NCBI RefSeq assembly: GCF_036323395.1
Contig: NZ_AP028907.1
Coordinates: 1,410,001-1,442,000, forward strand
Direction: 5' to 3'
DNA from: Pyrodictium abyssi
GTDB lineage: Archaea; Thermoproteota; Thermoprotei_A; Sulfolobales; Pyrodictiaceae
Length of the DNA: 32,000 nt
In this document: positions 4,625 to 32,000 of the stretch, piece by piece
Numbering within the stretch: the stretch's first letter is position 1
Layout of the letters: the number at the start of each line of letters is the position of its first letter
The notes under the pieces: generated by a model
The model's database searches: none
What the model was told of the DNA's origin: nothing
The model's input: only the letters and a program-made list of their open reading frames with translations
Position numbers and translations under genes: made by a program

Positions 4625-4800
4625 GGCTTGCAGCCCTCATACAAGAGTAGCCCCACTCTTGGCCCAGTATAAACCTTTAGGCCCACCAGCCTCCCACTGC
4701 TACACGGGCCCGACAACTACAAAAGAACCCTGCAAAGCGCTGTGCTAGACAATGGAGGGGCAGCCGGGTCGTCTAGCGGCCAAGGATGCGGGGCTTTGGA

Positions 4801-4824
4801 TAGCGGCCCTCTACCCCCTACCCC
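4801..4824 (+). repeat. 5' arm of the 24-bp intron-terminal inverted repeat (TAGCGGCCCTCTACCCCCTACCCC)
   Basis: It pairs position by position with 5520..5497, giving 23 Watson-Crick pairs and one U.G pair at 4810:5511. Confidence 0.9.
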
Positions 4825-4830
4825 GCTTTC

Positions 4831-5428
4831 CTACCTCGTGCTGCTCCTAGCCCGTCTTGCCATCTCGCTAGCCACCTTGTAGGAGCCGCCCAGCAAGTCT
4901 AGCCTGTTGAAGATAAACACTCGATACTTGCCTCCATGAAGATAGTAGTTGCAGCTGGCCCCTATCAGGCTACAAACACTCACCACGAGACTTGCTATCT
5001 TCTTTGAGGCTGTAGTTATGGCTACGCGGAAATAACCGCCACGCCTCCGCTCAATGTTTCCATCAGAGTCTATAAGCCCTTCAACGACGCCTATTAGGGC
5101 CTCTAGAGGGACTCCCTCTACGCCTTCCTCAAGAACCCTTGAGATAAACCTAGTCAGCGAGAACACTAGGCATTTACCACACACTGATACGACTACCTCG
5201 CCACCCTGCATAAACACGTTAGCATTGAATCCGAGGGATGCAATCACGTAAACAAGCTCCTTCAAGATCTCCGGACTCGTGAGGCCCGAGAAAAAGCCTT
5301 ATCCGGTAGTCATAACGCTTTCTATCTATATAGATACTGCCGTCGCCTAGACAGAACCCTGCAAGGTAGCCCCATTTACGCCAACCAACTCTACTAGTTA
5401 GCTCCTCGTAGTCACCACGACACTGCAT
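4831..5428 (-). pseudogene. Two-motif (single-chain) LAGLIDADG homing endonuclease, antisense to the tRNA, interrupted by a +1 frameshift
   Basis: The N-terminal frame starts at ATG 5428 and reads [46 protein letters not shown] (motif 1). The C-terminal frame is open from 5298 and ends at stop 4831; it contains ...EALIGVVEGLIDSDGNIERRRGGYFRVAI... (motif 2). The frames join at a T5 run (plus-strand A5 at 5291..5295). Deleting one T gives a protein of about 198 aa, close to I-DmoI in size. Confidence 0.8.
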
Positions 5429-5456
5429 AGGTCCCGAGGAATCGTGTAGAGAACGG

Positions 5457-5471
5457 TAATAATACAAATAA
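5457..5471. promoter_or_regulatory. AT-rich TATA-like block (TAATAATACAAATAA), candidate bidirectional promoter inside the intron
   Basis: This is the only strongly AT-rich block in the intron. Its centre (about 5464) is about 36 nt upstream of the HEG ATG (5428) on the minus strand. It is also about 33 nt upstream of the 3' helix arm (5497) on the plus strand. Confidence 0.45.
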
Positions 5472-5496
5472 GCTCCCCAGAGGGAACACGAGGTAT

Positions 5497-5520
5497 GGGG
5501 TAGGGGGTAGGGGGCCGCTA
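5497..5520 (+). repeat. 3' arm of the 24-bp intron-terminal inverted repeat (GGGGTAGGGGGTAGGGGGCCGCTA)
   Basis: Reverse complement of 4801..4824 except for one G.U position. It lies immediately 5' of the BHB central helix. Confidence 0.9.
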
Positions 5521-5558
5521 GAAGAGCCCCCGTGACCGGGGTTCGAATCCCCGCCCGG

Positions 5559-6323
5559 CTACCATCTCCCTCCAACCCGGCTAGCTCTGCCCCCCTCTAG
5601 CTCCTCTATGAGCGACCCCACTCCGTCTAGCGTGTACTCGCTGGGGTAGAGGGCTTCGGGGTAGCCTAGCTCCTTTAGCTTCTTAGCCGTGGTCGGGCCT
5701 ATGGCTACTGGCTTGAAGCCCGGGCTGCCTGGGCTCGGGTAGTGCTTGGTGAAGGCCTCGGCTATGCTGGGGCTCGTGAACACCACGTAGTCGAACATGT
5801 CGGCTATCCTCGCAGCCGCTGAGGCCATCCGGTCTAGGACAACGACCCGGTATAGAGGGATCTCCACGGCCTCTATTCCGTGGCTCTCTAGGCCGCGTAC
5901 TAGGTCTGGCACAGCCTTCTCGGAGCGGGGTAGCAGGACGCGGCGCGGGCGCAGAGATGCTAGCTCTTCTGCCAGTGCTGCGCCACGGTATTCCCTCGGC
6001 ACGTAGTCCGTGCGGACTCCGTGCTGCTCAAGCACCTGGCGGGTCTTGGGCCCGACCGCTGCTACCCGGATCCTTCCCTGCGTCTGTAACACGCGTATCT
6101 TCTCGAGCAAGCTGGCTAGGAGCCTGGGGGCACGGGGACTCGTGAATACTACCCAGTCGCTCTTCTCGAGTTCTTTCTCCACTTTCTCGGCTGCCCCGGG
6201 TACTGGCTCTACATCGATCACGGGGATGTGGGCTACTACCGCTATCTCGGCGAGCCGGCCGGGCTCTGAGCCGGGCGGGCGTAGGAGGAGGACGTGGGGC
6301 CGCCTGTCTAGCTTAGGCGCCAA
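5559..6323 (-). CDS. hemD: Uroporphyrinogen-III synthase
   Basis: The C-terminal 254 aa of the 397-aa track ORF look like HemD: two repeated half-domains with VVFTSP motifs ([10 protein letters not shown] and [13 protein letters not shown]) and [16 protein letters not shown]. The upstream part of the track ORF is an out-of-frame shadow of cobA. The start is placed at in-frame TTG 6323, just before HVLLLRPPG, and is uncertain. Confidence 0.75.
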
Positions 6324-29292: not shown

Positions 29293-29359
29293 AATAACAT
29301 AGAAACGAACTATTATTGAGATATCGCGGTATCGACAACTGGTGCAGGTAAAAACGGTT

Positions 29360-29851
29360 TTAGCTAGACGGCATAAATGTATACCCTTCCATACTGCGTA
29401 GCTTAGAGCTGAATGTTGCTATCTTCTGTATACGGAGCTTTTCTGCCACTGCCAGCGTTATTGCGTCGCTGAGGCTTAGGTCATGCTTCTTTGCCAGCTC
29501 TACCGCTTTTGCTATGTCGTCCATACCCACTGTGTAGACTGTGAGCCTCCCGGTCCTGCTTAGCTGGGATAGGTATGCTGCTAGCTTCTCTACGGCTTCT
29601 AGGGCCTTGGCCCTTACATCCTTGTTGGATGCTAGCTTCTCTATGCTCTCTGCCACGCTTGCCCCGGTGGCAGCACTTGCAGCAGCTACAGCAGCCTTGG
29701 ATAGCGCCTCGACTACTGCTGTGCTCGGTATCACAAGGTCTTCGCTGCCCTCTTCGGCACGGCTGAATATGTTGACCGCGAAGTCTGCACCGGTCTTGCC
29801 TAGTAGGAGCCTTATGAGGACTGTAGAGTCTACCAGTATTGGGCCGACCAT
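29360..29851 (-). CDS. vapC: PIN-domain protein (VapC-like toxin)
   Basis: 163 aa with N-terminal ILVDSTVLI (first acidic residue), VVEAL, and LSLSDAITLAVAEKL (third acidic residue). It has an Ala-rich insertion in the middle. It lies directly downstream of an RHH antitoxin gene. Confidence 0.72.
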   Translation of the reverse strand: MVGPILVDSTVLIRLLLGKTGADFAVNIFSRAEEGSEDLVIPSTAVVEALSKAAVAAASAATGASVAESIEKLASNKDVRAKALEAVEKLAAYLSQLSRTGRLTVYTVGMDDIAKAVELAKKHDLSLSDAITLAVAEKLRIQKIATFSSKLRSMEGYTFMPSS

Positions 29852-29874
29852 CGTGCTACACCTCCATCATACTC

Positions 29875-30096
29875 TTAGCCTGGGAGAACAAACTTGTCGA
29901 TCTCCTCGGCCTCGATACTAGCTTCTATGAGGCCGCGGAGCTTCTTGACGTCTGGCGCCTTGGAGTAGTATATGAAGAGCTTCATAGCCTCCCTGATGGC
30001 CTCGCTCCTTGATAGGCCGTGCTCCTGTGCTACTCTATCAAACTCCCGTAGCAGCTCCTGTGGGACGCGGACGTAGATGGCCGACGCTGTGCTCAA
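29875..30096 (-). CDS. vapB: Ribbon-helix-helix (CopG/VapB-type) antitoxin
   Basis: 73 aa. IYVRVPQELLREFDRVAQEHGLSRSEAIREAM is a typical RHH fold sequence. It lies 23 nt upstream of the PIN gene. Confidence 0.78.
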   Translation of the reverse strand: MSTASAIYVRVPQELLREFDRVAQEHGLSRSEAIREAMKLFIYYSKAPDVKKLRGLIEASIEAEEIDKFVLPG

Positions 30097-30289
30097 GGAT
30101 CAATCACCTATAATGTTTTCATTGCCTTCTTGCTCGGGTATAGAGGAGAGGGCAAACCCAATATATATCTTTTTTATACAAGCAGCGATCCAATGTCTTA
30201 ACCCTTGTTTAAGATGCTGTGCTGGAGGCCGCCGACCTGGACGCAAAAATATAGGAGAACCGCGTGGACGCCGGTGCTGGGAGAGAGCC

Positions 30290-30496
30290 ATGCCCGTGAG
30301 CCGCAAGTACACGGCCTATAGGAAGGCGCTAGAACAGCTCAAGCTCCGCCAGCTAGACGTATTCAGGTACAAGGGCTACGACGAAATAAGAGTACTAACA
30401 CCGGATAACAAGGTGGTATTGATAAAGCTGCCAAAACACCGCGAAGAAATGACCATCGACGAGTTCATAGAGCATGTAAAGAAGTCGATAGCTTGA
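30290..30496 (+). CDS. Small hypothetical protein (68 aa)
   Basis: ATG 30290 is preceded by the TATA-like AAAAATATAG (30245..30254), about 40 nt upstream. The upstream 71 codons of the 139-aa track ORF are Cys/Arg/Pro-rich and look non-coding. Confidence 0.45.
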   Translation: MPVSRKYTAYRKALEQLKLRQLDVFRYKGYDEIRVLTPDNKVVLIKLPKHREEMTIDEFIEHVKKSIA

Positions 30497-30549
30497 TAAC
30501 ATTCTAGCTAGCTTTATACCCCATTCTTCGACTCACTAACGCCTGGCTA

Positions 30550-31560
30550 TTACCACGCTGGGGCGGTCTTACCCTTCACCGCCCTACTGCTATCACGTGC
30601 ATACCTTAAGCAATTTTGTATACCCTTCCGTGGTACTAGCTCTGGGCATCTCTCTATAGTGAAGCTGCACCTCCCCGACAAGTAGTCATCTAGGCTGCAG
30701 GGCTCTACGCGTACACGGTTTTCCTGAAGGACGCAGCGGGGCCCCGCGTACCGGAATATCTCTGGGTGAATTTCCACGAGCTTGTCATAGACGTTCCATG
30801 CCAGCATGCGTATCTCCCACTGAGCATGGCTACACATCCTAAGCGGTAGGAAGCTTTCAAGGAGCTCCCGCGCGTTCATGGTGAAGACTACCCGTGTACG
30901 GACAGCATGTGGTAGCACAAACCGCGCGTCCTCTCTCGGTACTCCTTTGGCAAGCATCTCGTAGTAGGCAGCAGTAGCGTTGAGATGTATGCGTACCTGC
31001 TGGAGGACCGTGTCCATGCTCCACCTCGGGTTTATCACATAGGCTCTGCTAACAGCTGCCACAATCCCGTCAACATGTGCTCCGTTACTCTCCCCTGCCA
31101 GTATTTGCTGTACTGCGTCGGCAGCCCGGCTTAGAGCCATGCTGTAGATGCTGTAGTCTACACTACTGCCCGGCTTCTCCGGACAGTTAACCCCGAGTAT
31201 GCTGCATATCTCCAGCACCATGCTTCTCAAGAATCCTTCTGTATACCTCATACTCTGCTGTGTATAGCTTGCTATCCGGTGGCGAACGAGCTGGTGGCTA
31301 CATACACGGCTGCAGACAGCCTCGAAAGTGTACACGGCGTGCTCTAGGGGGCTTCCATGCCCTCTACGTACAAGTTCACGTATCCATTTCTCGATATCGC
31401 TAGGCTGCATTTCCCAGGCCTTTTCCACCGGCTTCTTCGAGACTGTTATCCTGGCAGCTGCAGCGGCAAGGCGCGGAGCGTCACGGGTATATGAGATAAG
31501 CTTGACGCTAACCGGCGGCGCGATAGATGCTCTGCTAGTCGTTGCCTCTAATAGAGGCAT
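30550..31560 (-). CDS. thyX: FAD-dependent thymidylate synthase ThyX (long form)
   Basis: 336 aa with the ThyX motif RHRIASYTQQSMRY, plus HGSPLEHAVYTFE, GVPREDARFVLP, NARELL.F...R.CSHAQWEIR. Confidence 0.88.
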   Translation of the reverse strand: MPLLEATTSRASIAPPVSVKLISYTRDAPRLAAAAARITVSKKPVEKAWEMQPSDIEKWIRELVRRGHGSPLEHAVYTFEAVCSRVCSHQLVRHRIASYTQQSMRYTEGFLRSMVLEICSILGVNCPEKPGSSVDYSIYSMALSRAADAVQQILAGESNGAHVDGIVAAVSRAYVINPRWSMDTVLQQVRIHLNATAAYYEMLAKGVPREDARFVLPHAVRTRVVFTMNARELLESFLPLRMCSHAQWEIRMLAWNVYDKLVEIHPEIFRYAGPRCVLQENRVRVEPCSLDDYLSGRCSFTIERCPELVPRKGIQNCLRYARDSSRAVKGKTAPAW

Positions 31561-31679
31561 CTAGGCCCCGAAAAGTAGTACTGCAGTAAAACAGTGAGCG
31601 GAGAACTAAGACCCACGAGATAGTGATAAGCACCCTCACAGTTTTAATAGTGTATTCGCGGGGCTCGGCGTTACTACCC

Positions 31680-32000
31680 CTACATTTCGCATGTCTTACA
31701 TGTACTGTTCTCTGTGAGCTCTACTACTACCTCGCCCGTATCTGTTCGTGCTTCTTTTACCTCGAACAACTCCCTAGCTCTTCCATCCATCTCAAGCTCC
31801 TCTGGCCTAGCTCTTTTCCTTAAGTGCATCATCCTCATCTTCCGGCGTGGCTGCTCTTGGCTCTTCTTGCGCCGCCTTATAGGCTTGGTTGACAAGCTCT
31901 TCTGCTCGCCGCCGAAGTAGATTACCTGGAGGCCCTTGCTGCCGTCGCGGTAGACGGTTACACCCTTCAGGCCGCCCAGCCAGGCCACTAGGTAGGCGGT
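31680..32000 (-). CDS. nrdJ: Ribonucleotide reductase (class II, NrdJ-like), C-terminal fragment running off the window
   Basis: The frame is open to position 32000. It reads ...[25 protein letters not shown], the conserved RNR C-terminal block, and has a C-terminal CxxC (CKTCEM) tail. Confidence 0.75.

Follow-up and report, generated by a model that had tools for sequence, protein, structure and literature searches.

A candidate internal promoter for the 3′ half of an interrupted tRNA-Gln(UUG) gene in Pyrodictium abyssi

The origin of split tRNA genes has been debated since Nanoarchaeum, with one view holding that they are ancient relics and the other that mobile elements produced them recently. 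Chan et al. (2011) favoured recent, mobile element-driven splitting, with the agent left unidentified, and archaeal tRNA introns spanned 11–129 nt in the 2011 survey (PMC3218864). The closest described arrangement is that of the Aeropyrum pernix gene for tRNA-Asp(GUC). This gene, once annotated with a 121-nt intron, consists of adjacent halves with an internal promoter on the same strand, a 14-bp GC stem and a canonical bulge-helix-bulge (BHB) motif at positions 37/38; its halves were seen by northern blot and RT-PCR, and read-through amounted to just a trace (PMC3218864). The kind of arrangement addressed here is therefore already known. Here we report on a 32-kb stretch of Pyrodictium abyssi DNA (contig NZ_AP028907.1, positions 1,410,001–1,442,000; referred to as the window), in which a tRNA-Gln(UUG) gene is interrupted at the same position by an apparent intron. 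This intervening sequence carries, antisense to the tRNA, a homing endonuclease gene (HEG) of the LAGLIDADG type and, between the start of the HEG and the 3′ arm of the BHB, an AT-rich block (Table 1). Comparison with related loci makes it probable that this block is the plus-strand archaeal core promoter of the tRNA's 3′ half.

The tRNA-Gln(UUG) gene and the promoter predicted inside it

The gene was rebuilt by hand from the raw window, as neither ARAGORN nor Rfam (at gathering thresholds) reported a tRNA in the unspliced 32 kb. Joining position 4799 to 5527 yielded a clean 76-nt tRNA-Gln(ttg) cloverleaf in ARAGORN, and the tRNA-Gln(UUG) at this locus is real. Since ARAGORN and the Rfam tRNA model both miss the gene, the annotations of P. 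abyssi and its relatives probably appear to be without a tRNA-Gln(UUG). The junction at 37/38 displays a canonical hBHBh′ motif with two opposed 3-nt bulges (GGA and AGC) and a 4-bp helix between them (4794–4797 paired with 5521–5524). Its outer helix is the anticodon stem (4789–4793 paired with 5528–5532), and its inner helix is formed by the two GC-rich arms in 24 consecutive pairs, one of them G-U. An explicit pairing check found Watson-Crick or G-U pairs at all 33 proposed positions. The arm duplex reaches about -68 kcal/mol, a value that includes an extra 8-bp helix (4832–4839/5488–5495), and the arm helix was retained when the two pieces were cofolded. Beside the BHB, adjacent halves are expected to carry a GC-rich leader that complements the trailer over some 12 bp or more, and the 24-bp arm lies well within this range. 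If functional, the predicted BHB would be cleaved by the tRNA splicing endonuclease and ligated by RtcB.

We consider it highly improbable that a mobile element has left the tRNA gene at this locus non-functional, with a functional tRNA-Gln(UUG) elsewhere in the genome, even though a selfish homing endonuclease cassette with a decaying HEG would suit such a fate. Exons 1 and 2 are both identical (38/38 each, 100%) between the window and L146, a metagenomic Pyrodictiaceae contig that is syntenic with the window (hemD and gcvT neighbours; related loci are given L numbers throughout), whereas the whole intron is 75% identical. Furthermore, changes in one arm are matched in the other, which preserves their pairing from lineage to lineage, the BHB motif is canonical, and the same arrangement persists in about ten lineages.

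Table 1 Features of the tRNA-Gln(UUG) locus in the window and related loci of the same family
Feature	Position	Strand	Details
Candidate 5′-half promoter	4710–4730	+	CCGACAACTACAAAAGAACCC; 20/21 identical in L146
tRNA-Gln(UUG) exon 1	4762–4799	+	tRNA positions 1–37; anticodon TTG at 4796–4798
Intervening sequence (apparent intron)	4800–5526	+	727 nt; canonical 37/38 position
5′ trailer / intron start	4800–4824	+	5′ bulge GGA 4798–4800; 5′ arm 4801–4824
Weak T-run	4825–4831	+	GCTTTCC; directly after 5′ arm
LAGLIDADG HEG pseudogene, double-motif	4831–5428	-	ATG 5428, stop 4831–4833; antisense to tRNA
AT-rich block	5457–5471		TAATAATACAAATAA; 14/15 A/T
Predicted BRE/TATA promoter of 3′ half	5457–5474	+	Matrix match 5459–5474 ATAATACAAATAAGCT; TATA core 5466–5471
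Predicted 5′ end of 3′-half transcript	5495–5497	+	T/A or T/G initiator step in GTATGGGG
3′-half leader / intron end	5497–5526	+	3′ arm 5497–5520 (24 nt, starts GGGG); BHB central strand 5521–5524; bulge AGC 5525–5527
tRNA-Gln(UUG) exon 2 and encoded CCA	5527–5561; CCA 5562–5564	+	tRNA positions 38–73
Stand-alone 5′ halves			L014, L025, L027, L041, L051, L052, L056, L059, L090, L096, L102, L103, L110, L120
Stand-alone 3′ halves (metagenomes)			L122, L125–L129, L131, L132, L135, L137, L138
HEG-less "introns" with long arms			L012/L091 146 nt, L077 169 nt, L024 175 nt, L046 97 nt, L029 37 nt

The coordinates given in the original prediction proved right for the block, the HEG ATG, the 3′ arm, the end of the 5′ arm and the GCTTTCC motif, as did the distances of the block to the ATG (5428) and to the 3′ arm (5497). 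The block had also been described as the only AT-rich stretch in the intron. It is indeed the most AT-rich 15-mer there, but a second stretch within the HEG coding sequence (5318–5338) reaches 12/15 A/T. In the entire window, at least 14/15 A/T is attained at just two places, one of them being the block. The other (29346–31889, especially 30160–30178) carries a cluster of promoter-matrix matches.

Promoter matches were scored with a 16-nt matrix of B recognition element (BRE) and TATA box, obtained by expectation-maximisation on 112 upstream regions of tRNA-Gln 5′ exons from other genomes. As its consensus, GAAAAACTTATAAACC, is an A-rich BRE followed by a TATA box, the matrix is oriented. The plus strand at the block scored 10.4 bits, rank 2 among the 63,970 positions of the window on both strands, and its TATA end lies 25 nt before the 3′ arm. 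As positive controls we used 11 stand-alone 3′ halves from metagenomes, each preceded by a strong promoter such as AACGCTTATAAGTT; these scored 10.7–15.5 bits, with TTATAA ending 21–25 nt before the leader arm. The promoter of one of them (L122, AACACTTATAAGCT) shares 11 of 14 positions with the window (AATACAAATAAGCT). The spacer holds what is expected between adjacent halves, a BRE/TATA on the tRNA strand that is placed for a start at the GC-rich leader. When the 68-nt spacer of the window itself is shuffled, a plus-strand match this good at 19–33 nt before the arm has a chance probability of P = 0.0025; compared to all other windows of the same intron, the value is P = 0.0008. For these distances the arm starts were set by hand, as RNA duplex folding over-extended the helices and distorted the measure. 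With the TATA centre at the usual position of about -26, transcription is predicted to start at A5495–G5497, and the surrounding GTATGGGG is conserved in L146 and L118. A plus-strand start had previously been placed near 5491; its position just before the 3′ arm is backed by the comparative evidence, while our estimate lies some bases further downstream.

Each of the 13 related loci whose intervening sequence measures 97 nt or more has a plus-oriented match of 7.4–13.1 bits 24–33 nt before its 3′ arm, and the sequences of these elements vary widely. In 12 of the 13 loci the plus match exceeds the best minus match within 110 nt (sign test, P = 0.003). The element is also conserved. Between L146 and the window, 19 of 21 positions are identical at the block (5455–5474), compared to 73% in the spacer on its HEG side and 53% on its arm side, and an island of conservation likewise marks the plus-strand element in another pair of loci, L047 and L144. 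Nowhere in the spacer is conservation higher than at the block, even though the HEG of L146 carries several breaks. Such prominence beside a dead HEG would not be expected if the element served the endonuclease alone.

We also considered whether the block became AT-rich by chance or is a minus-strand terminator of hemD, with no role for the tRNA, and regard this as very improbable. Its AT content is equalled in 8.6% of intron shuffles (P = 0.086), and the excess over chance stems from the oriented promoter score together with its position, from conservation in relatives and from recurrence in the 13 related loci. A simple terminator scan flagged a minus-strand hairpin (5487 to 5472) followed by TTATTTGTAT, and the hemD frame on this strand stops at 5559–5561, overlapping the last tRNA bases. 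However, the longest T run of the minus strand is three, and by eye the L146 sequence at this site forms no hairpin. In L146, the block is conserved over its flanks although hemD is located about 2 kb away behind another open reading frame (ORF), and loci with quite different neighbours share the element at the same distance from the arm.

The minus strand, the cis precursor and the 5′ half

The original prediction had read the block as a bidirectional promoter that also serves the HEG. For the minus strand this did not hold up: at the block, BRE and TATA are not found in both orientations, the minus strand scoring 0.7 bits with the same matrix against 10.4 bits on the plus strand, and the HEG to be served is a pseudogene. 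Neither in the window nor in L146 is there a minus-strand match of at least 4 bits upstream of the HEG ATG, and the minus matches in other loci are modest and variably placed. A sigma-70 promoter scan of the window, which is irrelevant for archaea, returned nothing. In Pyrococcus furiosus, shared bidirectional TATA elements with starts 49–50 bp apart are documented (PMC6640164). As such a shared TATA box fires both ways, some initiation on the minus strand is plausible, though here it would transcribe a pseudogene.

A stronger form of this idea is that the block is merely the promoter of the HEG, or a relic of it, and that all of the tRNA stems from a precursor of about 800 nt that is started upstream of 4762 and spliced in cis. 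We judge this unlikely but worth keeping in mind. The block lies 29–44 nt upstream of the HEG ATG, a workable distance from TATA box to start, TATA boxes are nearly symmetric and may be shared as in P. furiosus, and several relatives with an intact HEG have weak minus-oriented matches 19–36 nt before the ATG. These points contrast with the orientation of the match, with the conservation of the block beside an endonuclease gene that is dead here and multiply broken in L146, and with the HEG-less loci L012, L077, L024 and L046. The latter have no endonuclease gene to serve, but they retain a plus-oriented element, and its distance from the arm is the same. Correspondingly, the element of L121 is positioned 25 nt from the arm, even though the broken HEG has its putative, uncertainly assigned start codon about 115 nt away.

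Several observations weigh against a promoter of the 3′ half and a separately made 3′ transcript. The AT-richness of the block is not significant on its own. The 13 related loci share ancestry and are not independent trials, and the sign test thus overstates their independence. With 10.4 bits, the window falls just under the range of the positive controls, and the training promoters have a higher median (12.0 bits). In this genome the matrix is weakly validated, as 3 of 16 matches of at least 7.5 bits are situated upstream of a long ORF, and the strong match at 5063–5078 is a coding-sequence look-alike. Two further features would suit a tRNA made solely in cis. The plus strand of this intron is devoid of runs of four or more T, so that a read-through cis precursor would be unobstructed. 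In addition, the 8-bp complement of ACCTCGTG (4832–4839) and CACGAGGT (5488–5495), which extends the arm helix past a small internal loop, would form in a cis precursor only. This extra helix is probably due to chance; as a conserved feature it was rejected, since it is absent in L146 and L080.

The original prediction further envisaged a 5′ transcript ending after the 5′ arm. Such an end is conjectural: the T-run GCTTTCC is weak and reads GCTCCTC in L146, and the plus strand of the intron offers no longer one. Genuine split 5′ halves of GC-rich relatives are also without long T-runs. In AT-rich relatives with intact HEGs, several T5–T6 runs occur on the tRNA strand inside the "intron", and these are expected to hinder full-length transcription. 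A precise end of the 5′ half would not be required, since pairing with a separate 3′ half is open to any RNA that contains the 5′ arm along with exon 1. Splicing in cis and in trans could thus occur side by side, in keeping with the faint read-through detected by RT-PCR in A. pernix. The part of the original prediction in which the 3′ half is transcribed on its own and finds its partner through the long arms is well supported by the comparative evidence and by the precedent of A. pernix tRNA-Asp(GUC), which had not been cited there. We infer initiation at about 5495 and, likewise, the share of tRNA-Gln(UUG) that would be made in trans. Upstream of exon 1, the candidate promoter of the 5′ half stands out by its identity to L146, as the 21 nt that follow it are only 52% identical. 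It scores 2.3 bits with the trained matrix, and its core, TACAAAAGAAC, is similar to TACAAATAAGC of the internal block.

The endonuclease gene and the arrangements found in relatives

The frame of the HEG is broken by a 1-nt insertion near 5270–5274, as located by comparison with L080 and L146; the same comparison led us to reject a frameshift at the T5 run near 5292–5296. After correction of the frame, the protein matched Pfam LAGLIDADG_3 with 31.5 bits (cut-off 22.5) and Hom_end with 24.7 bits (cut-off 21.1), and it contains two LAGLIDADG motifs, the second being VVEGLIDSDGN. Public annotation keeps just a 144-aa C-terminal fragment as a hypothetical protein of Pyrodictium abyssi (99% identity). 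As its frame indicates, the HEG of P. abyssi is a pseudogene. The codons of the second motif (GLIDSDG) contain a look-alike of the promoter matrix on both strands (5063–5082; 9.6 and 8.8 bits). Its plus-strand 16-mer also scores 9.6 bits in L047, so the matrix yields false positives in coding sequence.

The HEG family is tiny, with seven homologous protein clusters among 5.8 billion. It was found in five long introns, in a sixth (L121) by metagenome scan and in six further loci reached via the protein clusters (the set comprises the window, L006, L045, L047, L074, L080, L118, L121 and L141–L146). At every one of these loci the HEG interrupts tRNA-Gln(UUG) at 37/38 and runs antisense to it. About five lineages have an intact gene (L006, L118/L143, L141, L142 and L144/L145), and in about six it is broken (the window, L146, L080, L047, L045 and L121). 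This mix of intact, broken and HEG-less copies is what a homing element would be expected to leave as it is gained, decays and is lost. A phmmer search with an intact HEG against PDB sequences returned nothing at E values up to 1. In the literature searched, whose coverage is incomplete and thus no proof of absence, there was no report of an archaeal tRNA intron or split tRNA with a homing endonuclease.

To place the locus among its relatives, a genome collection was scanned with the tRNA-Gln 5′ exon. The scan gave at least 120 loci, mostly from metagenome-assembled genomes (MAGs) of Desulfurococcales, Sulfolobales, Acidilobaceae and Pyrodictiaceae. Among the matches listed, 33 loci have no intron at 37/38, about 50 have a short intron of 12–61 nt, four have an intervening sequence of 97–175 nt and five have one of 667–745 nt; in another 24 the first search pattern found no 3′ exon. 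At least 14 of these 24 combine a normal 5′ exon with a GC-rich trailer such as ACCTCGGCCGCCGCCCCC, and no 3′ exon was present on either strand in the stretch reaching 2.4–6.5 kb downstream of the 5′ exon. Conversely, a metagenome scan that combined the complementary leader with the 3′ exon brought up the 11 stand-alone 3′ halves, which have no 5′ exon in the stretch examined; for L126, the best-centred of these loci, there is none within about 6.8 kb on either side. With stand-alone halves of both kinds, tRNA-Gln(UUG) is truly split at 37/38 in some relatives. Fully split genes were seen in MAGs of Sulfolobales, Acidilobaceae and Desulfurococcales and in metagenomes, and the list of split tRNAs in Chan et al. 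2011 (PMC3218864) does not include a tRNA-Gln(UUG) split at 37/38.

Between these extremes are the HEG-less "introns" with long arms, of which L012/L091, L077, L024 and L046 are candidates for adjacent-halves split genes of the A. pernix type. The arms of L077 resemble those of the window, those of L024 resemble L121 and those of L029 resemble L047. A tblastn search with intact HEGs found no endonuclease remnants beside fully split halves; descent of split genes from HEG-bearing ones is thus argued from the similar arms and promoters alone. The suggestion that the locus could be an evolutionary intermediate gains from these comparisons, as the same tRNA is intronless, has a short intron, consists of adjacent halves or is fully split at the same position in relatives. 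The order of these stages is derived from presence and absence among the relatives rather than from a phylogeny.

Some further features were observed around these loci. The neighbourhood of the tRNA gene includes a cobA-like ORF. In L146, a 487-aa ORF without a Pfam match and a 68-aa ORF are located between hemD and the tRNA (1362–2825), and both are absent in the window. Five further loci from the metagenome scan (L124, L130, L133, L136 and L140) hold genes for tRNA-Gln(CUG); these have short introns that by chance contain GGCCGAG on their 3′ side, and they are unrelated to the split family.

A possible course of events and comparison with known systems

We propose that the locus would function as two adjacent units on the same strand, a 5′ half of exon 1 and the trailer arm and a 3′ half of the leader arm, exon 2 and CCA. 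The A-rich BRE and the TATA box in ATAATACAAATAAGCT would start plus-strand transcription at about 5495–5497, the latter being within the first bases of the 24-nt 3′ arm. The two RNAs would anneal through the 24-bp arm helix into the canonical hBHBh′, and tRNA-Gln(UUG) would result from cutting and joining at 37/38 by the tRNA splicing endonuclease and ligase. A decaying antisense LAGLIDADG HEG occupies the 600 bp that separate the halves, and the cassette of arm, HEG, promoter and arm would be a homing element that brings its own means to keep the host tRNA functional. As a tentative scenario, such a LAGLIDADG element may spread in Thermoprotei as a gene-splitting cassette that inserts into tRNA-Gln(UUG) at 37/38 and creates two units rejoined via the BHB. 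The P. abyssi copy would then be a decaying one; loss of the HEG would lead to adjacent halves 97–175 nt apart, and rearrangement between the halves to fully split genes.

If this is correct, the locus family would provide a concrete and still-active mobile agent for a late origin of split tRNA genes. All stages would be represented by one tRNA at one position: uninterrupted, with a short intron, as adjacent halves with an intact HEG, with the HEG decayed or deleted, and fully separated. If the downstream half is rescued by a promoter of its own within the element, this would explain how an essential tRNA gene accommodates a 700-bp antisense gene at little cost, and also how such a gene later comes apart. 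As P. abyssi is culturable, the predicted 5′ end at about 5495 and a 3′ half of about 70 nt are directly testable.

As in the BRE-TATA-BRE promoters of P. furiosus, a single near-symmetric TATA box could give divergent starts about 50 bp apart; the predicted starts are separated by 53–54 bp (5437 and 5491 in the original prediction, about 5442 and 5495 in ours). Unlike these promoters, the window shows a recognisable BRE on the plus side alone, and the product of the minus strand would be the mRNA of a pseudogene. A second comparison concerns archaeal rRNA introns with BHB motifs, whose endonucleases include I-DmoI, I-PorI and I-ApeI. The genes of these enzymes have the same orientation as the host RNA, so that the intron, once excised, can serve for their expression. 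The tRNA-Gln element shares with the rRNA introns and their LAGLIDADG enzymes (PMC4496867) a BHB-bounded insert in a stable-RNA gene and a double-motif HEG, and both show presence/absence polymorphism and decayed copies, as in a homing cycle. It differs in that the host is a tRNA gene, the HEG is antisense in all 13 loci and a predicted promoter for the downstream exon is situated within the element.

Separately transcribed halves with complementary GC-rich leaders and trailers, which form a BHB that is cut by the splicing endonuclease, are also the hallmark of the split tRNAs of Nanoarchaeum equitans, of the tri-split tRNAs of Caldivirga maquilingensis and of tRNA-Lys(CUU) in Staphylothermus, and relatives of the P. 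abyssi locus are fully split as in these cases. In contrast to such trans-spliced tRNAs, the halves in the window are 727 nt apart on one strand, so that a cis precursor could form, and the tRNA-Gln of N. equitans is split at 32/33 instead of 37/38 (PMC3218864). The greatest similarity is to A. pernix tRNA-Asp(GUC), with neighbouring halves on the same strand, an hBHBh′ at 37/38 extended by a GC-rich stem, and a BRE/TATA on the tRNA strand inside the apparent intron that would direct a start at the GC-rich leader. Both loci can be read as intermediates between intron-containing and trans-spliced genes. The half transcripts of A. pernix were detected experimentally, whereas those of P. abyssi are predicted here from the DNA sequence. 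The P. abyssi gene further differs in encoding tRNA-Gln(UUG) instead of tRNA-Asp, in its spacer of 727 compared to 121 nt, in its arm of 24 compared to 14 bp and, above all, in the antisense homing endonuclease gene between the tRNA halves.

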